Source: Candidatus Desulfaltia sp.
GTDB lineage: Bacteria; Acidobacteriota; Aminicenantia; Aminicenantales; UBA8522
DNA length: 64,000 nucleotides
Direction of reading: 5' to 3'
Assembly (NCBI GenBank): GCA_035528895.1
Contig: DATKXS010000038.1
Location: forward strand, 23,895-87,894
Shown here: piece after piece, positions 6,653-20,734 of the stretch
How the letters are laid out: each line of letters starts with the position of its first letter
Position numbering within the stretch: the first letter of the stretch is position 1
Notes under the pieces: generated by a model
The model's database searches: none
What the model saw: the letters and a program-made list of their open reading frames with translations, nothing else
Told to the model about the DNA's origin: nothing
Program-made: the position numbers and the translations under genes

Positions 6653-7618
6653 TCAGGGAGAGCGCATGGCATCCCGGAAATCCCGGGCAGCGATGTTCCC
6701 GCCGCTGACCACCAGGACCGTCTTCTTCGCTTGAAAACGCGACCGGTCTTCCAGAAGGCCGGCGAGAGAGAGCGCTCCCGCCCCTTCCACCATCCTCTGA
6801 TGGAGCTCCAGGATCAAAGACATCGCCCTCTTGAGAAGAGGTTCTTCGACGAGGATTATTCGGTCTAGAAGCTCTCGGCACAGCGGGAATGTGATCGAGC
6901 CGGGCTCGATCCCGCCGGCGACGGCCTCGGCGATCGTCTCTCCTTCTTCGATCTCGACGATGTGTCCGGCGGCCAGTGAAGCCGCCATGAAGCCCGAGCA
7001 GGACGGTTCGACGCCGGAGACCTCGACGGTCCTGCCGGAGGCCTTGAGATAGCCGGCGATCCCGGCGATGAGCCCCCCCCCTCCGACCGGCACGAGCGCA
7101 GCCTCAACGTCGGGGAGGTCTTCGTAGATTTCCAGGCCGATCGTCCCCTGCCCGGCGATAATATCCTCGTCGTTGTAGGGAGAGATAAAGGTTTTCCCGG
7201 TCTCTTCGGCCAGGCACCGCGCCCAGATCTCCGCCTTATCGCAACTTTCCCCGTGGACAATGATCTCGGCCGGTCCTTCTTCCAGGCGCCTTTTTTTCTC
7301 TGCCGATACGTTTTGCGGCAGGACGAGCGCCAGCGGAAGGCTTTCCATCTCCGCGGCCAAGCTGATCCCCAGCCCGTGGTTCCCGGTCGACGCCGAGACG
7401 ACCCCCCGGTTCCTTTCCTCCGGCGAAAGAGACCGGATCTTGTTCAACGCTCCGCGGAACTTGAACGACCCGGTCCGCTGCTCGCTTTCCCATTTCAGGA
7501 AGACCTCTGCTCCCGTCAAGGCGCTCAAGGCGGGGGAAAATTCAAGAGGGGTGCGGCGGATGTCCGGGCCGATCCTTCCGTAGGCGGCAATGATTTTTTC
7601 CTGCCAATCCAGAGACAT
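6653..7618 (-). CDS. Threonine/serine dehydratase family (PLP fold-type II)
   Basis: SFKFRGALN PLP-lysine motif, GNHG, and the glycine-rich VGGGGLIAGIAG loop; about 320 aa with no ACT domain. Confidence 0.7.
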   Translation of the reverse strand: MSLDWQEKIIAAYGRIGPDIRRTPLEFSPALSALTGAEVFLKWESEQRTGSFKFRGALNKIRSLSPEERNRGVVSASTGNHGLGISLAAEMESLPLALVLPQNVSAEKKRRLEEGPAEIIVHGESCDKAEIWARCLAEETGKTFISPYNDEDIIAGQGTIGLEIYEDLPDVEAALVPVGGGGLIAGIAGYLKASGRTVEVSGVEPSCSGFMAASLAAGHIVEIEEGETIAEAVAGGIEPGSITFPLCRELLDRIILVEEPLLKRAMSLILELHQRMVEGAGALSLAGLLEDRSRFQAKKTVLVVSGGNIAARDFRDAMRSP

Positions 7619-11503: not shown

Positions 11504-14500
11504 CTATTTTTTGGGGTAAGCCGGCCGTTCCGGGAAATTCAGCGGATTCTCTCTGATCTTCTCCAGGATGACCTCGATGGCTTTCTCCAGCTGGAGGTCA
11601 CGCCCAGCCACGGCGGAACCGGGGTCATTGTCGATGAGAATATCCGGATCAGCGCCGTGGTTCTCGACCAGCCACTTCCCTTCCGGGCCGTAAAAGGCAT
11701 TGTTCGATTGTTCGACCCGGCCGTTGTCGATCGTCGTCTGACCGTTGAGGATACCGACCAAGCCACCCCAGGAAGGCACGCCGACCACGGTCCCCAGCTT
11801 CCGCGACTTGAAGTGCTCGACAAAAGCTTCTCCGTCGGACCCGTTGTTCTCATTGGATAGAACGACGTAATTGCCGTTTCCGGTCGATCCCGGATAGCGG
11901 AAGGGCACCATTCCCCGCAGGACGTTGAAGGAGTCCAGTTGCCTCTCCAGCTTGTCGATGAGGAAATACTCGGTCCAGCCGCCGGAGTTTCGCCGCAGGT
12001 CGAGGATGATCCCGTCCTTGTAGCGGAAGGCTCTCCAGTACTTGTCGAACTCGCCAATTCCGCCCGGGCCCATGGCGTTGATATGCATATACCCAACCCG
12101 TCCGTTAGTCGCCTCCGCGATGGTGCGGATGTTGTCCTGGATCCAGCGGAAGTAGCGGAGTTCCCGATCGCTGCGGATAGGCTCGACCTCGTATGTTTTG
12201 GCACCTTCCAGGGAGGGCCTGGCGTTTACCGTCACTTTGACCTTCTGTCCTCTGGTGACTTGGAGGAGCTTGAAATAACCATCCCCGGCCCGGAGCGGCA
12301 CACCGTTAATGGCCAGGAGGTAGTCATTCTCCTTGATGTCCATGTCCGGCCGGACAAGGGGTCCCGATAGGTCCAAGTTGACTTCGGTCGGGCCGTAAAT
12401 CCGGGCCAGCCTATAAAAGCCTGCCGCCGGATCAGCGACAAGGTCGGCCCCAAGAAGACCCGTGTAAAGGGGTGATCGCGGCGTCTCGGCCGGACCGTAG
12501 TCCCCCCCACCGATGTAGGTATGGGAGACACAAAGCTCGCCGACCATCTGCGACATGACCCAGTTGAGCTCCTCCCGCGATGAAAGATGGGGAATATAGG
12601 CCCGGTACTTTTCGCCCATGGCCTTCCAGTCGCGGCCGTGGAAACCGGCGTCATAGAAGAAATCCCGGTACCAGCGCCAGCAATCATTGAAGATCTGGTT
12701 CCATTCCTTCTGCAGATCAACACGATAGAGGAGAGTCGAAAGGTTAAGCTTCTCGCCCAATCCCTTGTTCTGATAGGCCTTATCAACGGATACCCAATAG
12801 ATGTCGTCTTCTTTCCGGATGATCAGCTGCCCGCCGTTTGTCGAGAGGTCGAACTCGCGTATTTTATCGCCAAGGATAACCTCTTTTCCGGCGGCGACAT
12901 CGAAGATGTGGAGGTCCCACTTGGTGGCGCCGCGGGGCGCGAAGATCTCCTCATACTCATCGTCGGTGAATTTGTCCACAGAGGCATAGAGAACCTTGCC
13001 CTTGCCAGCTTTGAGGTGGAAATAGTTACCCGCTGGAACGGGAAGCGGATAAACCCGCTTGGACAGTCCTTCAAGGTCGATGCGAAAAGGCCCGACTTCT
13101 CCTTTTTTATCGCTTTTTTCCTCCGGAGTCTCTCCCGCAAAAGGCGGCTTCTCTCCGGCCCTGAGCTGCACGGCCATGATCTGCTGGGGAGAAGCGATGA
13201 CGTGGTTGTCCTCATAGAAATCCATCTGGACGCCGAAATTCCGGCTGGACACAAAATAAAGATAGCGGCCCTCAGCATCGAAGGACGGGTAAAGATTATC
13301 GTAGAAATCGTCGGTGACGGCATGGCGTTTCTCCGTCTCCGTGTCGTACAGGAAGATCCGGCTGTTACGATTGTATTGGACGAGGCTGTAAGCGATCCAG
13401 CGGGAATCGGGCGCCCAGGAATAATCGCTGATCTCCCAGTAGAACTCGTCGTTCTTCATCTGGTTGGAGGAATCGATTTTCTTGAGTTTCTTGGACTCCA
13501 CGTCGATAACAAAGATCGAGAAATCCTTGTTGCCGAAGAGAATCTTCTTCCCGTCCGGCGACCAGAGGAGGTGATAAACCGTTCTATCGAGATCGCTGGT
13601 CAACGGCGTCCATTCTCCACCATCTGCTTTTTGGAGATAAAGCTGGTAATCGCCGCTCTTGTCCGAGAAGAACGCGATCCTTTTCCCATCGGGAGAGGGA
13701 GCCGGGTACATTTCGCGCGTGCCGGGTGTATTGGAGAGGTTGACCGCTGGCTCTTTCGCCGTGGGCACGGTGAAGACGTCTCCCCGAGCTTCGAGGACCA
13801 CGGCCTCGCCATCATCGGCGATCTTGAGATGGTGGATGTATTCGCGCGGGCTGATAACGCGGTCGCGAAGGGCCCAGCGGTCGGAGGGGACGAGCACTGC
13901 AATTTTATTTGATTGTCCGGACGCAACGTCGAGGACACGGAGATAGCCGTCCTGGACGTAAACGATCGTTTGGCCGTCGGTCTGGGGCATCATCACGTCG
14001 AAATCGGCATAGCTCGTGACGGGACGGACCTCACCGCCGCCGATCTTCTGGGCGTAGATGTTGGAAATCCCATTCCCCCGGTCGGAAACGAAATACATTG
14101 TCTCGCCAATCCACATCGGATAGCTGTTCTTGCCCACGTAGTCCGAGACGGGCGTATACTTCCGGGTGCGGCCGTCGTACATCCAGATGTCCTGGTAGCG
14201 TCCCCCTTTGTACCGTTTCCAGTAATATTCCTCGGTGCCGCGGCGGCAATAAAGAAAATTCTGTCCGTCGGGTGAGAAGCTGATGAGCACCCCTCGCTCC
14301 AGCGGCAAACGCTCGGGGGCGCCGCCCTTGACGGATACATAATAGAGGTTGGGATCGCGGCCGATGACGTTCTCGAACATCGACCGGAAAACGACCTTGG
14401 CGCCGTCAGGCGTCCAGCCCACGACATCGGCCGATCCCGGCTGGTAAGTCAGCCGGGTTGGAGCTCCTCCCTCGGCCGGCATGAGATAGACCGACGGGGA

Positions 14501-14755
14501 ACCGTCGTAGGTCGCAGAAAAGGCGATCCACTTCCCGTCCGGCGAGAATTTGGCAGAGGATTCATAGCCGGGGAAGGTCGTGATCCGCGAGGCCGTCCCG
14601 CCCTGAGCGGAGACGATCCAGAGGTCGCCTTCATAGGTAAAGACGATCTTGCCTTTCTGGATGCTCGGGTAGCGGAAGAACCGTCCCTCCTCTGCGGCCA
14701 GCGCCGTACCGGCTATCAGGACAAACGCAAATAGCATGACCAGAGCTTTTTTCAT
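11504..14755 (-). CDS. Tricorn protease homologue (S41 peptidase with beta-propeller, PDZ and C-terminal catalytic domains)
   Basis: 1083 aa with a signal peptide, repeated WSPDG/FSPDG propeller motifs, a PDZ-like region and a C-terminal S41 Ser/His region (GSDGEAFV). Confidence 0.8.
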   Translation of the reverse strand: MKKALVMLFAFVLIAGTALAAEEGRFFRYPSIQKGKIVFTYEGDLWIVSAQGGTASRITTFPGYESSAKFSPDGKWIAFSATYDGSPSVYLMPAEGGAPTRLTYQPGSADVVGWTPDGAKVVFRSMFENVIGRDPNLYYVSVKGGAPERLPLERGVLISFSPDGQNFLYCRRGTEEYYWKRYKGGRYQDIWMYDGRTRKYTPVSDYVGKNSYPMWIGETMYFVSDRGNGISNIYAQKIGGGEVRPVTSYADFDVMMPQTDGQTIVYVQDGYLRVLDVASGQSNKIAVLVPSDRWALRDRVISPREYIHHLKIADDGEAVVLEARGDVFTVPTAKEPAVNLSNTPGTREMYPAPSPDGKRIAFFSDKSGDYQLYLQKADGGEWTPLTSDLDRTVYHLLWSPDGKKILFGNKDFSIFVIDVESKKLKKIDSSNQMKNDEFYWEISDYSWAPDSRWIAYSLVQYNRNSRIFLYDTETEKRHAVTDDFYDNLYPSFDAEGRYLYFVSSRNFGVQMDFYEDNHVIASPQQIMAVQLRAGEKPPFAGETPEEKSDKKGEVGPFRIDLEGLSKRVYPLPVPAGNYFHLKAGKGKVLYASVDKFTDDEYEEIFAPRGATKWDLHIFDVAAGKEVILGDKIREFDLSTNGGQLIIRKEDDIYWVSVDKAYQNKGLGEKLNLSTLLYRVDLQKEWNQIFNDCWRWYRDFFYDAGFHGRDWKAMGEKYRAYIPHLSSREELNWVMSQMVGELCVSHTYIGGGDYGPAETPRSPLYTGLLGADLVADPAAGFYRLARIYGPTEVNLDLSGPLVRPDMDIKENDYLLAINGVPLRAGDGYFKLLQVTRGQKVKVTVNARPSLEGAKTYEVEPIRSDRELRYFRWIQDNIRTIAEATNGRVGYMHINAMGPGGIGEFDKYWRAFRYKDGIILDLRRNSGGWTEYFLIDKLERQLDSFNVLRGMVPFRYPGSTGNGNYVVLSNENNGSDGEAFVEHFKSRKLGTVVGVPSWGGLVGILNGQTTIDNGRVEQSNNAFYGPEGKWLVENHGADPDILIDNDPGSAVAGRDLQLEKAIEVILEKIRENPLNFPERPAYPKK

Positions 14756-15125
14756 GAGGAACCTCCTTTGAAAAATATTGCAATCGGCATGAAAATGATA
14801 TTTTTTCTCAATCGGATAGCCAAGTCAAATGAAGCTTCCAGAATCCGACCAACCGATCCGACTCATCCGGATGGGGCCTTCGCAAGGAAGGCAGATGAGG
14901 CCTAGCATAAAGCAGAACGCCATGAGAACAAGAGGGCAAACAGAATCAGCGCCAACCAAAAAGATTTCTTTTTTTTCAGAATCGATTTCAAGTCAAATCC
15001 AGTGACGTTTTCGGCCATCTCTTCCCCTCGTTAAATTCATGAATATTCGCCCCGTTGAGCGAGAGAAAAACATAACACCGGGGCCGAACTGATGTCAATT
15101 TCGCAAAACGACCCCGCGCCATCGC

Positions 15126-15350
15126 TTACAGGCTCAGCCGTAGCATAGTGAAATTGACGGCCTCGACCTGGGGGATGTCTTCATTGTCCCCCAGACTGTC
15201 CTCGATCCGCACCTGGATCGCCGTGCGGATATTCTCGAGGGCTTCTTCGTAGCTTTCACCGTGAGCTTCGCAGTCCGCGAACTCCGAGCACACAGCCAGC
15301 CAGCCGTTGCCGTTCTTGCCGATCACCACCGAGAATCGATAATCTTCCAT
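15126..15350 (-). CDS. HicB-like antitoxin-domain protein (UPF0150 family), apparently orphan
   Basis: YRFSVVIGKNGNGWLAVCSEFADCEAHGESYEEALENIRTAIQVRIE matches the HicB/UPF0150 pattern (xYxVVIEKDEDGGYxAxVPDLPGCxSQGDTxEEALxNxxEAI). It lies 56 nt downstream of dnaE2 on the same strand, with no HicA-like ORF adjacent. Confidence 0.55.
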   Translation of the reverse strand: MEDYRFSVVIGKNGNGWLAVCSEFADCEAHGESYEEALENIRTAIQVRIEDSLGDNEDIPQVEAVNFTMLRLSL

Positions 15351-15406
15351 CGTCTGCCTCCGCTGATTACGCAGCCATTTTCATGCCAAAATCGTCCACA
15401 TGAATC

Positions 15407-18400
15407 CTAAAATGTTTTTAAAAAGGAGCAGTTATGGATCTTGACCAGGCCGGCGCCGCCGCGGCGGACCTCTCCCCGGAGGCAGCAGACGGGCGGCTGT
15501 CCGAAGCTCAAACAACGCCTCTCCCCCACCCCCTCGAGAAGCCCGGTCTCGTCCTCAAATAAATAAAAATACTTACTGCCGTTGCTCGTGTCCTTGAGCC
15601 GAGCATCGACCACCCGCACCACGAGCTCTACTTGCTGTCCGAAGTAATTGCCCAAATCTTTGACCCGGAGCTCCGGCCTCTTCCCTTCGTAGAGCTCGAG
15701 GGAATCGGGCCCCGGGCTGAAGCCGAGGGAGTCGACGAGCATCTTGGCCTTCTCGAGCGAATTCATGTCCGCGACCTCCTCCATGTCCTCGAGCCCCTGG
15801 AAATAGCGCAATATCTGCCGCGTCCGCCGCGGCTCGAGGGAATCGAACACCCCGGCCTTGATGAGCGAAAGAAGCTCGGCCCTTCCGAGATGGACGCGGG
15901 CCAGGAAATCCTCGACCGAAGCGAACTCGCCATCCTTGCGCTCAGCGACGATCTTCTCTATCGTCTTGACCGCCAGCCCCTTGATCGAGGTCAAGCCGAC
16001 GCGGATGTTGGACCCCTCGACTTCGAAGAGATGGCCGCTCCGGTTGATGTCCGGGCCCAAGAATTTGATGCCGCGGCGTTTGGCCTCTTCGATGTACTCG
16101 CTGAGCGGGTAGTAGCCGCCGCCGGCGTTGAGCACCGCCGCAAGATAGGGCACGGTGTGATGGACCTTGAGGTAGACGGCCTGGTAGGACATGGCCGCGT
16201 AGGAGGCGCTGTGGGCCTTGTTGAAGGAGTAGCCGGAGAATTTCTCCATGGTCGCCCAGAGCTTTTCGATCTCGGCGGTCGGGTAGCCCCGCTCCCGCGC
16301 CTCGCGGAAGAACTTTTCTTTGAGCGCCGACCGGGTGCCGTTCTTTTTCTTGAGCGCCCGCCGCAGCAGGTCGCCTTCCTCGGGCGGCATCCCCGCCACC
16401 CGCTCCGCCACCTGCATCACCTGCTCCTCGTAGAGGAGAAGCCCGCCGGTCTCAGGCAGGATTTTCTCGAGGAGAGGCTCCCGGAACGTCTGCCGCTTCT
16501 CCCGCGCCCGGAGGAGCGCCTCTTTCATCCCGCTCTCGGTCGGGCCGGGCCGGATGAGGGCCAGGGCCTGGGTCAGTTCGTAGATTGTCTCCGGCTTCAT
16601 CCGCCGGAGGAGGTTCATCATGGCCGGACTCTCCACCTGGAAGCAGCCGATGGTCTGGGCTGTCTGGAGCAGCTTGTACGTCTTGGCGTCATCGGGCGGG
16701 ATGCTCCGGAGGCCAAGCCTCTCCCTGGTCTCGGAGATGGCCGCCAGCCCCCGCACCGAAAGGAGGTCGAGCTTGATGAGCTTCAGGTCCTCGACCGCGT
16801 CCCGGTCGAAATGGCTCATGACGAGCCCCTTGGCCGACTCCTCGAGCGGGAGGAAGCGGGTCGCCGGTGCGGGCGTGAGGATGACGCCTCCGACATGGAG
16901 CGAGATCTCGGCGTAGACGCCGCCAAGTTGGGAAGCCATCTTCCAGACCTCGAGATGGCCCGCGGCCGGCTTGTCCCGCCGCAGGAAATCGGGCTCGGCG
17001 AAGAACGGGATCCTCTTCGTCAGCGACCGCGCCTCTTCCGGCGGAATGCCGAAGGCCCGGGCCGTCTCATAGAGAGCGGAGCGGGCGCGGTAGTTCTTCA
17101 GGCTGCAGACAAAGGCCGCCCCCGTCCTCCCCTGCCCGTATTTTTTCAGGACATAGTTGAGGACCTCGTCGCGCCGGCGGGAGTCGAAATCGAGGTCGAT
17201 GTCCGGTGGGTCGTTCCGGCCGGCGTTGAGGAAGCGCTCGAAGTAGAGATCGAACTCGACCGGACTGACGTGGGAGACACCGAGGAGGTAGGCTAAGTAG
17301 GAGGAGGCACCCGAACCCTTGAGGTTGTGGAGGATGCGGTGGCGACGGGCGAACTCGATGACGTCGTGGACGATGAGGAAGTAAGGCGCAAACCCGGATT
17401 TCTCGATGACATCCAACTCCCGGCGGGCCCGCTGCCTCTCCCGCCAGCTCAAATCCTTCGCGCCGCGGAGCCGCTCCATGACGAGCCCGCGCAGCGGCGT
17501 GGGAAAGAGGTCGGGAGGGAGCGGCGGCACGATCTCCTCAAAGGCGAAGCGGCATTTTTCGGCGACCTCAAATGTCCTCTGGAAGGCATCCTTGACGGCG
17601 GGACCGAGCTTGCGGAGGGCGACTGTTTCCTGGTCCGGGCCGAAGAGCGTCGTCCTTTCCGCCAGCCTGTCCTTCTCCGGAGGATAAGGGACCTTCCTGG
17701 TGATGGCGTGGAGAAGGATGAGGCGCTCCGGGCTCTGGACGAATTTCAGCGGGTTGGCCCAGACGAGGGGAAGGCCATGGGTGCGGGACCATTCCGCCGC
17801 CCGACTGAAATTCGCAAAATCACAGCCCAGGTAGAAATCGCCATCGCTGAATGAATCGAGAACAACGCCGGTCCCGTTGCCTGAATTGACCTGAAAACCA
17901 GCGGCGTTCTTGCCGGGACGATTTTCCGCGATAATCTTGAACTCCGCCGGCAGGTCGATGTCCTCAGCCCTGGGAATATATACGGTGACGAGGCCCTCGG
18001 TCGCCAATCGAACCACTTTTTCCCCTGTTTCTTTCTCCCCTTCTGGCATCGATCCTCCCACTCCATTCCCAGCCTGAGTCTTTGCTTTCGCCGTTGCGCT
18101 CTTCCCGTCAACTGGCTTTCTTCCCCACTCTCCTGCTTGCCTTACCAAGGCTGCACTTTCCTCACGCGCTGTGTCTATTTTTCCTTCTCTCGTCTCTCCT
18201 TCTTCTTTCGGCCGCCGCCCCTTCTGGTTGAATATCTCCATCAAATTCCAGTAGCCCTCCCGGCTTTTGACGAGGAAGACAAACTGTCGGCCGCCGACCG
18301 CGAGCTCGCAACCGAAAAGGGGCCGCGCCCCCCGCGCTTCCGCCGCCCTCTTCCACTTCGCCCAGCCGTAGATATTCTCGATGTCGGCGAGGGCCGCCGC

Positions 18401-18505
18401 CCCTATCCTTTTCCGCGCCACCCACGCCGCCGCTTCCTCCAGCGTGACGCTCCCCTTCCCCCGGCTGTAAACCGAATGGAGACGCAGCGGGACGAACATG
18501 CTCAA
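15407..18505 (-). CDS. dnaE2: Error-prone DNA polymerase III alpha-subunit paralogue DnaE2 (ImuC)
   Basis: 1032 aa with an N-terminal PHP domain (MFVPLRLHSVYS), a Pol III alpha core, and no C-terminal tau-binding extension. Co-directional with dinB and lexA immediately upstream. Confidence 0.8.
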   Translation of the reverse strand: MSMFVPLRLHSVYSRGKGSVTLEEAAAWVARKRIGAAALADIENIYGWAKWKRAAEARGARPLFGCELAVGGRQFVFLVKSREGYWNLMEIFNQKGRRPKEEGETREGKIDTAREESAALVRQAGEWGRKPVDGKSATAKAKTQAGNGVGGSMPEGEKETGEKVVRLATEGLVTVYIPRAEDIDLPAEFKIIAENRPGKNAAGFQVNSGNGTGVVLDSFSDGDFYLGCDFANFSRAAEWSRTHGLPLVWANPLKFVQSPERLILLHAITRKVPYPPEKDRLAERTTLFGPDQETVALRKLGPAVKDAFQRTFEVAEKCRFAFEEIVPPLPPDLFPTPLRGLVMERLRGAKDLSWRERQRARRELDVIEKSGFAPYFLIVHDVIEFARRHRILHNLKGSGASSYLAYLLGVSHVSPVEFDLYFERFLNAGRNDPPDIDLDFDSRRRDEVLNYVLKKYGQGRTGAAFVCSLKNYRARSALYETARAFGIPPEEARSLTKRIPFFAEPDFLRRDKPAAGHLEVWKMASQLGGVYAEISLHVGGVILTPAPATRFLPLEESAKGLVMSHFDRDAVEDLKLIKLDLLSVRGLAAISETRERLGLRSIPPDDAKTYKLLQTAQTIGCFQVESPAMMNLLRRMKPETIYELTQALALIRPGPTESGMKEALLRAREKRQTFREPLLEKILPETGGLLLYEEQVMQVAERVAGMPPEEGDLLRRALKKKNGTRSALKEKFFREARERGYPTAEIEKLWATMEKFSGYSFNKAHSASYAAMSYQAVYLKVHHTVPYLAAVLNAGGGYYPLSEYIEEAKRRGIKFLGPDINRSGHLFEVEGSNIRVGLTSIKGLAVKTIEKIVAERKDGEFASVEDFLARVHLGRAELLSLIKAGVFDSLEPRRTRQILRYFQGLEDMEEVADMNSLEKAKMLVDSLGFSPGPDSLELYEGKRPELRVKDLGNYFGQQVELVVRVVDARLKDTSNGSKYFYLFEDETGLLEGVGERRCLSFGQPPVCCLRGEVRRGGAGLVKIHNCSFLKTF

Positions 18506-18653
18506 GCTCTATTCCCTCTCCCCCTCTCCTTCATCCTCCCCCGCCAACTAGAGAAGGAAGACGAGAGTCGCCGATCAATCCTCCTCCCCTGGTGGGAGGA
18601 GGTCGGGAGGAGGGGGATTTCTTTATTCAGAAGAGACACGCGCATCATGACGA

Positions 18654-19877
18654 TTACCTTGTCAACGACGCGGTCTTGAGGACGAACCCGCGCCTCTGCT
18701 CGAACTCGTAGACGGTGTCGAGCATCTTTTCCCGGACCGTCAGGAGCGAGCCGAACCCGTACTTCTCCCGCACCCGGTCGACGGCCGCACCCAGCCGCTC
18801 TTCCCGGTCCGAGTACGGCTCGAAGAGAGAAAGGGACCTGGCCCTGACCAGGTCCGAGGCCTTGACGCCGACGAGCCTCAAGGCCAGCCGCGACGAGGCG
18901 AAAAGATTCAGGAAAAGGTCCTCGGCGACCCGGTAGATCCCGCCCATCTCCTGGAGGGGTGTCAGCAGGAGGCGGCGCCGCACCTCGGTCTTGAAGTCGG
19001 AGTAGCGGGCCTTGACCTCGATGACGTGGGCGAAGAGGTGCTCCTGCCGCAGGCCGAGGGTCAGCCGGTCGCAGAGATAGGCGAGATGAGCGAGGAGCAG
19101 CCGCCTGTCCCAGAGGTCCTCGAGGAAGGTCGTCTCCCGCGAGACGGACTTGGGGACGGTGGGCGTAAACACGGGCCGGCTGTCGATCCCGCGCGACTGA
19201 AGATAGACCTCCTCGCCCTCGAGACCGAAGAGGGAGCGCAGCGCCGGCCGCGGCATCCCCCAGAGGTCGCCGATCTTGTGGATGTTGAGCATCCGGAGGA
19301 CGACCTGGGCCTTGGGCCCGATCCCGGGCAGGCTCTCGATGCCGAGGCCGCGGAGGAACTCCTCCTCGCAACCCTCCTCAACCTCGAAGAACCCGGCGGG
19401 CTTGGCCTTTTTGGTGGCCAGTTTGGCCAGGATCTTGTTGGGCGCCATACCAACCGAGACCTTGAGTCCGGTCGCTTTCTCAATGCGCGCCTTCATCTGC
19501 CGGGCGACGGCGGAGAAGGACGAATAGAGCGGCCGGCAGCGGGTGAAATCGAGGTAGGCCTCGTCGAGCGAGGCCTCCTCGACGTCGGGCGTGTACTCAT
19601 GGAGGATGCGGAAGAACTTCTCGGAGAAGGCCTGGTAAACCTGGTAGTTACCGCGGATGAAGAGGCCGTTCGGGCAGAGCTGGTAGGCCTTGCGCAGGGG
19701 CATGCCGGAGTGGACGCCGTAGCGGCGGGCCTCGTAGTTGCAGGTCGAGGCCACGCCCCGCTCGTGGGGCAGACCGCCGACGATGACCGGCTTCCCTTTC
19801 AGGGCGGGGTCGAGCAGCTCCTCGACGGCCGCGAAAAAGGCGTCGATGTCGATGTGGACGATCGAGCGGCGCTTCAT
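18654..19877 (-). CDS. dinB: Y-family DNA polymerase (DinB/Pol IV-like; occupies the ImuB position of the cassette)
   Basis: MKRRSIVHIDIDAFFAAVEE... and SLDEAYLDFT retain the catalytic Asp/Asp/Glu, followed by little-finger-like helix-hairpin-helix regions. The longer annotated N-terminal extension is not supported. Confidence 0.75.
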   Translation of the reverse strand: MKRRSIVHIDIDAFFAAVEELLDPALKGKPVIVGGLPHERGVASTCNYEARRYGVHSGMPLRKAYQLCPNGLFIRGNYQVYQAFSEKFFRILHEYTPDVEEASLDEAYLDFTRCRPLYSSFSAVARQMKARIEKATGLKVSVGMAPNKILAKLATKKAKPAGFFEVEEGCEEEFLRGLGIESLPGIGPKAQVVLRMLNIHKIGDLWGMPRPALRSLFGLEGEEVYLQSRGIDSRPVFTPTVPKSVSRETTFLEDLWDRRLLLAHLAYLCDRLTLGLRQEHLFAHVIEVKARYSDFKTEVRRRLLLTPLQEMGGIYRVAEDLFLNLFASSRLALRLVGVKASDLVRARSLSLFEPYSDREERLGAAVDRVREKYGFGSLLTVREKMLDTVYEFEQRRGFVLKTASLTR

Positions 19878-20071: not shown

Positions 20072-20689
20072 TCAGTACTTCCGCAGCAGGCCGACGACCC
20101 TGCCGACGACCCGAAGCTCCTTGACCTCGACTGGCGCGAACTCCGGGTTCTCGGGAACGAGGAGGATCCGGCCGTTCTCCTTGCGGAGCCTTTTCAACGT
20201 CACCGAGCCGTCGTCCAGGCGCGCCACGACCATCTCGCCGGACTGGGCCGTGTTCGTCCTCTCCAGGAGCACCCGGTCGCCGTCGTCGATGTAGGCGTCC
20301 ACCATGCTCTTCCCGGCGACGCGGACACAGAAGATGTTGCCGCGGCGGCGGCCGACCATCCACTCGGGCACGTCCACACTCTCGCCGAGAGAGTCGAAGA
20401 CCTCCTGGGCCCGGCCGGCGGGAGCGACGCCGACGAGGGGGACCTTGACCCGGTTCTCGAACGGCGAGGGGATCCCGGCGAGGCGCAACTCCCCGGCCTC
20501 ACGGCTGAGGTAGCCCTTCCTTTCCAGGCTCAGGACGTGCTTGAAGACGGCCGAGGGATTGGCCAGGCCCAGCTGTCTTCCGAGCTCGCGGATGGTCGGG
20601 GGAAAGCCGTGCTCGAGGACAAAGGCCTCGATGACCTGGAGGGCCTTTCTCTGGCGCTGGGTCAGCTCTTTGTACAATCTGTTCACCAT
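20072..20689 (-). CDS. lexA: LexA repressor
   Basis: N-terminal winged HTH (QRQRKALQVIEAFVLEHGFPPTIRELGRQLGL), a VAPAG cleavage-site region, and S24 peptidase Ser (GKSM) and Lys (TLKRL). ATG start with an AAGGTG RBS. The annotated upstream TTG start would overlap the -35 element. Confidence 0.85.
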   Translation of the reverse strand: MVNRLYKELTQRQRKALQVIEAFVLEHGFPPTIRELGRQLGLANPSAVFKHVLSLERKGYLSREAGELRLAGIPSPFENRVKVPLVGVAPAGRAQEVFDSLGESVDVPEWMVGRRRGNIFCVRVAGKSMVDAYIDDGDRVLLERTNTAQSGEMVVARLDDGSVTLKRLRKENGRILLVPENPEFAPVEVKELRVVGRVVGLLRKY

Positions 20690-20705
20690 TTTGTTCACCT
20701 TATAT

Positions 20706-20734
20706 ACAATAGGCCGCCGGGAGGCCCTTGTCAA
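20706..20734 (-). promoter_or_regulatory. Putative lexA promoter (TTGACA-17 nt-TATTGT on the minus strand)
   Basis: The -35 is the reverse complement of 20729-20734 and the -10 the reverse complement of 20706-20711, with a 17-nt spacer. A degenerate SOS-box-like element (TTGTTC-N7-ATACAA, 20691-20709) overlaps the -10 and start region. Confidence 0.35.

Follow-up and report, generated by a model that had tools for sequence, protein, structure and literature searches.

A solitary HicB-like gene lies behind a lexA-dinB-dnaE2 cluster

We analysed a stretch of 64,000 nucleotides (nt) of contig DATKXS010000038.1, referred to here as the window, in which a small gene encoding a HicB-like protein, i.e., a relative of the antitoxins of HicAB toxin-antitoxin (TA) modules, directly follows the gene for a DnaE2-like C-family DNA polymerase. 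The genes lexA, dinB, dnaE2 and the HicB-like gene all lie on the minus strand, with lexA at the head of the cluster (Table 1). An initial annotation had placed a gene of 74 amino acids (aa) at this site, 56 nt past the dnaE2 stop and on the same strand, without stating that this is the minus strand, and our analysis confirmed that placement.

Table 1. Positions in the window of the HicB-like gene, the polymerase cassette and associated features
Feature	Position	Strand	Remarks
HicB-like gene	15126..15350	minus	74-aa open reading frame (ORF), ATG start; protein begins MEDYRFSVVIGKNGNGW; HicB N-terminal domain alone
Shine-Dalgarno (SD) sequence GGAGG	15357..15361	minus	6 nt 5' of the HicB-like ATG; read from sequence
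Spacer, dnaE2 stop to HicB-like start	15351..15406	minus	56 nt; holds predicted promoter element and ribosome-binding site (RBS)
Sigma-54-type -24/-12 element	15374..15388	minus	TGGCATGAAAATGGC (GG-N10-GC); ends 23 nt before the ATG; putative function
DnaE2-like C-family polymerase gene	15407..18505	minus	1032 aa; Pfam PHP / DNA_pol3_alpha / finger / HHH_6
dinB (DNA polymerase IV)	18654..19877	minus	407 aa; NCBIfam NF002677, 305 bits (cut-off 256)
lexA	20072..20698	minus	First gene of cluster; Pfam LexA_DNA_bind and Peptidase_S24; TIGR00498, 163.7 bits (cut-off 110.95)
lexA promoter region	20680..20734	minus	TTGACA (20734-20729), 17-nt spacer, TATTGT (20711-20706)
Invariant 19-nt motif	20698-20680	minus	GTGAACAAAATGGTGAACA; spans lexA start; alignment of 17 loci
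Downstream gap	14756..15125	minus	370 nt, from HicB-like gene to tricorn-protease gene (same strand)
Small ORF, 44 aa	14988..15122	minus	In downstream gap; non-conserved
Small ORF, 38 aa, hydrophobic	14902..15018	minus	In downstream gap; own GGGGA RBS; non-conserved
Sigma-70-like promoter match	15098..15069	minus	TTGACA-18-TATGTT with TG; precedes 38-aa ORF

The protein consists of a HicB N-terminal domain

The HicB/UPF0150 signature of the protein had been described as clear. Taken by itself, the window protein matched the Pfam profile PF15919 (HicB_lk_antitox) with E = 2.3e-5 and 25.0 bits, i.e., below the gathering score of 27 bits, over profile positions 9-62 of 123, and an NCBIfam scan of it gave no match. 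The signature is nevertheless real when the family is considered: PF15919 was matched by all 18 members of a family alignment (A2; E <= 0.01, best 4.5e-8), six of which also matched UPF0150 (PF21748), and some relatives are paired with hicA. When 5.8 billion proteins were searched, 75 homologues of near-constant length were retrieved, most of them exactly 74 aa long and 73-88% identical, and the sources of the close homologues (mostly 74 aa) were metagenome-assembled genomes (MAGs) of Aminicenantes and sediment or wetland metagenomes. A smaller set of homologues (P0068-P0074) was 45-50% identical over the full length, with E about 1e-14. The gene for one of these, P0070, is followed with a 4 bp overlap by a gene for a 76-aa protein that matches Pfam PF07927 (HicA_toxin), an arrangement present on five independent contigs; the window protein is ~49% identical to short HicBs trailed by such a Pfam-verified hicA. 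The window protein belongs to the HicB N-terminal domain family.

Among structures in the PDB, the family profile matched Thermus TTHA1756 (E = 4.5e-4) and a Burkholderia HicB. An AlphaFold2 model (predicted local distance difference test score, pLDDT, 75.8) contained three strands followed by a 21-residue helix, in keeping with the partial RNase-H-like beta-beta-beta-alpha(-beta) fold. The protein is acidic, with a net charge of -10 and an isoelectric point (pI) of 4.2, and stops at 74 aa, where classical HicBs continue into a DNA-binding domain of the ribbon-helix-helix (RHH) or helix-turn-helix (HTH) type. Of the features of a type II HicAB system, the window gene shows neither an adjoining hicA nor the C-terminal RHH or HTH domain that serves autoregulation in classical HicBs. 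Compact HicBs of classes 1 and 2 are also devoid of a DNA-binding domain, and are functional antitoxins (Gerdes 2024, PMC10865869).

The C-terminal sequence ...FTxLRLSL was considered as a beta-clamp-binding motif and ruled out: hicA-linked HicBs end in an equivalent ...LTSLEVAV, so that this segment is the last strand of the fold. A foreign base composition was ruled out as well, because the GC content of the HicB-like gene (about 0.57) is like that of the neighbouring genes. A protein identical to that of the window (P0001) bears the NCBI label 'Candidatus Desulfaltia sp.' (Thermodesulfobacteriota), whereas all relatives of the gene and of the flanking DnaE2 are from Aminicenantes, a conflict that points to how the source MAG was binned or labelled.

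No toxin gene accompanies the HicB-like gene

In compact relatives hicB is followed by hicA, so a lost partner would be expected downstream of position 15126. When all six-frame stop-to-stop segments of at least 33 aa between 14741 and 15140 were scanned with Pfam, no HicA was found in the downstream gap at E <= 10, and tblastn with three HicA sequences against the whole 64-kb window gave nothing credible. One weak tblastn match, at 2530-2634 (E = 0.18), was rejected because it falls within a 585-aa ORF. The gene directly upstream is dnaE2, not hicA. The earlier description of a solitary HicB-type domain without a HicA partner was thus borne out: neither method revealed even a degraded hicA, and the DNA-binding domain is missing too.

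The same holds for related loci. No hicA adjoined the HicB-like gene in about 170 of them, apart from a separate module near L002/L018, and none was found in about 105 dnaE2-linked loci. The separate module (L002 7717-8158, the same as L018, JBBILQ010000027.1) is a complete second hicBA pair ~490 nt past the solo 74-aa gene, encoding a basic 68-aa HicB (pI 8.6) and an uncalled 73-aa HicA ORF (MAEIPLLKPREVIKAFKKLGW...GSH...).

The downstream gap had been reported to hold ORFs of 28 and 38 aa; the actual sizes are 44 and 38 aa. Both were ruled out as partners, being conserved in none of about 170 related loci, and no relative resembles the gap at the nucleotide level. The hydrophobic 38-aa ORF was called by the Joint Genome Institute (JGI) in a near-identical contig (L181). 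No Rfam family was found in 14500-15700, and no terminator-like site in 14600-15600.

The gene is retained behind dnaE2 in two clades of Aminicenantes

For a species survey, one genome per species was scanned with the DnaE2-like protein. This gave 80 Aminicenantes DnaE2 loci at 60-92% identity, nearly all with lexA and a Y-family polymerase (PolY) gene upstream. Of about 70 informative species, 25 had an intact HicB-like ORF of 72-86 aa directly behind dnaE2, starting 18-258 nt past the stop, and about 45 loci with sufficient downstream sequence carried no such gene. On the DnaE2 tree the carriers form two clades, i.e., clade A, which includes the window (11 of 14 with the gene), and clade B (15 of 15). 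In the three clade A species that are not carriers, no remnant of the gene was detected.

In the reciprocal scan, metagenomes were searched with the HicB-like alignment and contigs were looked up, yielding 90 further loci, 84 of them with enough upstream sequence. The gene directly upstream was dnaE2 in 81 of the 84, and likewise in the most divergent member examined. The tail gene noted in the initial annotation was thus found in other dnaE2 neighbourhoods both from the polymerase and reciprocally. Intact ORFs of near-constant length (mostly 72-75 aa) were present in more than 100 loci, at a distance from dnaE2 that ranged in relatives from 12 to about 330 nt. The genes downstream of the HicB-like gene varied by locus and included radical SAM, kinase/FGE-sulfatase, sulfatase and tricorn protease genes.

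Only one lineage, represented by L004 (~6977-7201), L005 and L115 (~4001), had no dnaE2 upstream of the HicB-like gene. Here codon 7 is TAG (MDDYRF, then the stop) and the promoter motif described below is degenerate (TGGTAT...); gene callers begin at an internal GTG and give 66 aa. No polymerase genes lie upstream, and the downstream neighbour in this lineage (kinase-FGE-sulfatase) is shared with L006, which suggests that the polymerase cassette was lost in the lineage. The HicB-like gene apparently decays where the cassette is absent.

In a DnaE2 clade without the HicB-like gene (L035, L036, L037, L039, L041, L044, L073 and L083), a same-strand ORF of ~220-240 aa lies 120-470 nt after dnaE2.

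The solo family arose once and is under purifying selection

The HicB-like gene gave a pairwise ratio of nonsynonymous to synonymous substitution rates (dN/dS) of 0.11 within clade A versus 0.26 within clade B; the corresponding values for dnaE2 from these genomes, taken over its C-terminal 600 codons, were 0.11 and 0.23. The HicB-like gene is under purifying selection.

In a neighbour-joining (NJ) analysis, clade A, clade B and further representatives formed one group (80/80 bootstraps) apart from the hicA-linked compact HicBs. Invariant within this solo family are W17, F24 and an EDxLGD[DN]E motif, and it differs from the hicA-linked relatives in having W17 for Y, F24 for L and LGD[DN]E for LESGE. 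The pattern of helix alpha1, [ST]YEEAL-N[IL]R-AI--[IV]ED, is largely common to both. A single bootstrap-supported group apart from the hicA-linked HicBs, taken with the purifying selection, shows that the solo family arose once from a compact hicBA module by loss of hicA, has been maintained since and is not a leftover. Of the suggestion in the initial annotation that the gene is the remnant of a TA module, the descent from a compact hicBA that lost hicA is therefore upheld, but not the idea of a leftover, for the gene is intact even where the DnaE2 proteins are only ~60% identical. On a midpoint-rooted NJ tree of DnaE2, carrier clades A and B are not sisters, so that either the gene was present ancestrally and was lost later, or the cassette was transferred.

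A sigma-54-type promoter element precedes the gene in most loci

Alignment of the spacers between dnaE2 and the HicB-like gene revealed a conserved element that is present in both clades and is of the -24 GG / -12 GC type (TGGCAC-N5-TTGC). Of 26 genome loci, 15 had the pattern TGGCAY-N7-GC ahead of the gene, where chance would give 0.04, and so did 70 of the 90 further loci; in both clades the element occurs in about 75-80% of loci. There were 28 matches to the pattern in 1.7 Mb of locus sequence, and half of them were the sites upstream of the HicB-like gene. The consensus is TTTGGCAyGAAAnnTGC in clade A and TTGGCACGnTTnTGGCAG in clade B. Most clade A loci have the element at an unvarying 23-26 nt from the ATG, and in many clade B loci it lies further out; GGAG was kept at the SD position in alignments of related loci. 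We infer, with good support from these sequence data, that a sigma-54-type promoter lies upstream of the HicB-like gene. Loci without the element mostly have just 12-18 nt between dnaE2 and the gene (eight or more such loci), and L011, a hicA-linked relative, shows a sigma-70-like -10 box instead. No rpoN was found in the window or in the locus flanks.

Two other readings of the element were rejected. As a sigma-70 promoter (TTGGCA ... TAAnnn) it would have a spacer of 13-14 nt, and its leader would exclude the SD sequence; as a hairpin, its pairing is not conserved between the clades. The initial annotation had treated the gene as the co-transcribed terminal gene of an SOS operon. Its tie to a LexA-headed cluster was supported, but in most loci, the window included, it appears to have a sigma-54-type element of its own.

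Several spacers contain additional features. In clade B loci L061, L064, L072 and L076, a perfect hairpin (GGGGACAyGTAC-N6-GTACrTGTCCCC) comes straight after the dnaE2 stop, and several clade A spacers (L018, L026 and L084) hold an inserted repeat-like element, CCCTCTCCC...GGGAGAGGGTCGGGGTGAGGG. The leader is longer in clade B loci L137, L146, L147, L148, L154 and L155, with 68-69 nt between the -12 GC and the ATG. These longer leaders hold a 13-codon upstream ORF (e.g., MSEIQERMKRRLR and stop), the TGA of which shares bases with the main start codon (ATGA); the ORF may be a by-product of the conserved SD region. An inverted-repeat element of ~45 nt (GGTGACA...TGTCACC) is found in the leaders of L069, L074 and L142.

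At the head of the cluster, the TTGACA-17-TATTGT promoter of lexA is conserved. A copy of the 19-nt motif GTGAACAAAATGGT[GAT]AACA marks the lexA start in about 60 Aminicenantes species, and no locus holds a second one. This motif resembles a direct repeat of GTGAACA and may be a LexA operator, a translation-initiation region or both, the operator role being a guess because the conservation stems partly from the SD sequence and the MVN codons. A LexA-type operator next to the HicB-like gene was considered and rejected: the 19-nt motif occurs only at lexA, and a match with two mismatches at 14924-14942 is at chance level.

The cassette encodes an active-type DinB and a DnaE2-like polymerase

The Y-family gene of the cassette encodes a catalytically intact DinB (polymerase IV) and not ImuB: the protein scores above the family cut-off (Table 1) and retains the motifs HIDIDAFFAAVE and SLDEAYLD (i.e., the DxD and DE motifs), and no ORF for ImuA lies between lexA and dinB. 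Judged by its genes, the cluster is of the lexA-dinB-dnaE2 type with an active-type DinB, not of the imuA-imuB-dnaE2 type. The C-family polymerase scored 537 bits with the NCBIfam DnaE model and 491 bits with the error-prone model, each below its own cut-off. Its PHP ligands are degenerate (PLRLHS, ADIEN; ligand motifs as defined in PMC12926913), and reading of the sequence found no tau-binding C-terminal domain after the OB region. The label 'DnaE2-like', which the context of lexA and PolY fits, is reasonable but not proven.

Residues ~95-235 of the DnaE2-like protein form a low-complexity PHP insertion, which in the aligned segment is 56-171 aa long across species; carriers of the HicB-like gene have a median insertion length of 90 aa versus 61 aa in non-carriers, with overlapping ranges. 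DinB has a C-terminal extension ending ...RGFVLKTASLT[KR] (window 18654-18730) that is nearly invariant in all Aminicenantes compared (L016-L095) and could be a RecA-NT-like motif of Y-family polymerases. The gap between dinB and dnaE2 is 148 nt in the window (18506-18653) versus 6 nt in L001, L002 and L006.

Known DnaE2 modules comprise those with ImuA and ImuB, those with an inactive PolY and RecA, and those with an active PolY, a standalone ImuB-C and RecA (PMC6511836, PMC12926913, PMC3765255, PMC8072749). No HicB-type protein appears in these published module surveys, and the 2026 survey of polymerase modules (PMC12926913) has no entry for HicB, for any antitoxin or for Aminicenantes. A full-text literature search for HicB together with dnaE2 returned nothing relevant.

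Discussion

Our results suggest that an antitoxin domain has acquired a new role. We tentatively favour the view that the toxin-less HicB domain has been domesticated as a small protein-binding modulator, with a partner tied to the DinB-DnaE2 translesion cassette. Within the Aminicenantes, an ancestral compact hicB-hicA module, in which HicB is a partial-RNase-H-like domain of 60-90 aa that clamps the HicA RNase, lost hicA; the remaining hicB became fixed immediately 3' of lexA-dinB-dnaE2 and has been kept intact in two clades. Expression could be achieved by two routes, i.e., by read-through from the LexA-headed cluster, as the 12-18 nt spacing in some relatives would suit, and from the putative sigma-54-type -24/-12 promoter of the gene itself in most loci, including the window. 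Having no DNA-binding domain, the protein cannot be a repressor, and it retains the helix-plus-sheet face with which a canonical HicB grips its partner protein; taken together, these two properties make a small acidic protein-binding modulator the most likely function. Candidate partners would be DnaE2, DinB or an associated factor, and the function would then depend on the cassette. By analogy, such a modulator would resemble the standalone ImuB-C proteins of other DnaE2 cassettes in its size and in where its gene lies. The option raised in the initial annotation, that of a domain recruited to the SOS cassette, fits with the position conserved in two clades, the purifying selection and the apparent decay where the cassette is missing.

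A more far-reaching version of this proposal is that the protein serves an ImuA/ImuB-less DinB-DnaE2 module as an accessory or regulatory subunit that has so far gone unrecognised; a toxin-clamping domain would bind and tune an error-prone polymerase, and its supply would be gated by both a sigma-54 activator and LexA. We consider this doubtful.

Several observations weigh against a modulator tied to the cassette and against the proposed modes of expression. At a 90%/10% threshold, no DnaE2 residues or indels separated carriers from non-carriers; in DinB, one weak column did so at an 85%/15% threshold. About two thirds of cassette-bearing Aminicenantes species are without the gene, and three clade A species have lost it cleanly; the gene is therefore dispensable for a working cassette. 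Conservation within the protein is highest in the helix that makes contact with HicA in canonical pairs, which would suit a HicA-like partner equally well. As to the promoter, neither the window nor the flanking sequence of about 170 loci yielded a gene for an NtrC-type AAA+ activator, in a search that included a positive control, although one could lie elsewhere in the genome; an upstream activator site in the 3' end of dnaE2 was not evident either, there being no drop in synonymous-codon entropy in its last 200 nt, and at about 12 nt the leader predicted for clade A is short. SOS control of the cluster by LexA would follow from gene order alone, lexA being the first gene.

The protein might instead be an orphan antitoxin acting in trans, neutralising HicA-type RNases encoded elsewhere or on mobile elements and phages, with its position behind dnaE2 an accident preserved by the short spacer. 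The identity of 45-50% to hicA-paired HicBs is in line with this, as is the largely shared helix alpha1, which in solved complexes packs against HicA (PMC10865869). The full hicBA module 490 nt away in L002/L018 and the solitary hicB genes known from defence islands (PMC10865869) point the same way, and a promoter of its own would let expression be uncoupled from that of the polymerase genes. This explanation does not account for a gene that keeps dnaE2 as its neighbour in 81 of 84 loci despite reshuffled downstream genes, or for the nonsense mutation in the sole lineage without an upstream dnaE2; the family-specific invariant residues, on a branch with 80/80 bootstraps, and the absence of hicA from the 64-kb window also argue against it, and on balance we regard it as rather unlikely. 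It is also unlikely, in our estimation, that the gene is simply a conserved neighbour with no functional link to the cassette, i.e., that it encodes a small sigma-54-regulated protein of unrelated role, held in place because a spacer of 12-200 nt is a small target for rearrangement. In line with this, the gene has a promoter element of its own in about 75-80% of loci, co-varying residues in DnaE2 or DinB were not found, and most Aminicenantes have the cassette without the gene. However, the eight or more loci without the element show operon-style packing of 12-18 nt, the linkage to dnaE2 persists over ~40% divergence of DnaE2 while the downstream neighbours do not persist, and in the lineage that lacks the cassette the gene has become a pseudogene.

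That the gene is a decaying hicBA remnant or a chance ORF is very improbable. This would be consistent with the absence of hicA and with the sub-threshold Pfam score, which concerns the window protein only. It is contradicted by the intact ORFs of near-constant length in more than 100 loci, by dN/dS values (0.11-0.26) comparable to those of dnaE2, by the conserved RBS and promoter element, and by the lack of any trace of hicA in any frame. Nor is the conservation likely to be an artefact of sampling one population, the sampled DnaE2 proteins being only 60-90% identical.

Among known systems, the compact HicAB modules of classes 1 and 2 (PMC10865869) are closest in domain, size and fold, with 45-50% identity to the members followed by hicA, and both groups are acidic (net charge about -9 to -11). 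In contrast to these modules, the family described here has no hicA, a fixed place behind dnaE2 and invariant residues of its own, and it has a predicted sigma-54-type promoter where the hicBA relative L011 has a sigma-70-like -10 box. The UPF0150 proteins of Thermus thermophilus, i.e., TTHA1756 (2yzt), TTHA0281 (2dsy) and TTHA1013 (1wv8), are likewise single domains of ~70 aa with the same fold. We know of no link between these Thermus proteins and polymerase genes.

The arrangement of genes finds a parallel in the dinB-yafN-yafO-yafP operon of Escherichia coli (PMC2814082, PMC3105422), where a TA-derived gene also directly follows a LexA-controlled translesion polymerase gene. Transcription of yafNO from both the SOS-regulated dinB promoter and a proximal promoter of its own has been shown experimentally (PMC2814082), whereas for the HicB-like gene dual expression is a prediction. 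The E. coli genes encode a complete RelE-type pair from an unrelated family, and their proximal promoter is of the sigma-70 type and autoregulated by the antitoxin; here, by contrast, there is an antitoxin domain alone, unable to bind DNA, and a proximal element of the sigma-54 type. A second parallel is with the small standalone ImuB-C proteins, which are accessory factors in PolY/DnaE2 cassettes (PMC3765255, PMC12926913, PMC8072749). Like the ImuB-C of the Deinococcus lexA-imuY-imuB-C-dnaE2 cluster (PMC3765255, PMC6511836, PMC12926913, PMC8072749), the HicB-like protein is ~75-80 aa in size, is encoded in or at the edge of an imuA-less lexA-PolY-dnaE2 cluster and is conserved together with the cassette. 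However, ImuB-C is a beta-barrel of novel fold with a conserved C-terminal Trp and basic residues, while the HicB-like protein is beta-beta-beta-alpha and acidic, and in Deinococcus the ImuB-C gene lies between those for PolY and DnaE2 rather than after dnaE2. When compared with the published description of ImuB-C (PMC3765255, PMC12926913), identity of our protein as a standalone ImuB-C was rejected on both fold and composition.

DnaE2 cassettes are the main path to damage-induced mutagenesis in many bacteria. The small accessory proteins of these cassettes (ImuA, ImuB-C, YolD and SRAP) are still being catalogued, and none that we found described is derived from a TA module. Solo antitoxin genes as such are already known; what is unexpected here is the conservation and the predicted sigma-54-type promoter, in a distribution limited to part of one phylum. 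A toxin-less family kept for a long time at a fixed site behind dnaE2 offers a clean natural case of domestication of an antitoxin domain. If the protein were instead an orphan antitoxin, it would be a solo antitoxin kept for a very long time at a fixed chromosomal site, which bears on the 'anti-addiction' idea. If real, the sigma-54-type promoter would provide a second, activator-dependent input to a LexA-headed cluster, and if supply of the protein were indeed gated by both sigma-54 and LexA, mutagenic synthesis would need two independent stress signals. For an uncultured phylum, the HicB-like family provides a concrete candidate for a new modulator of polymerases, and one that can be tested.

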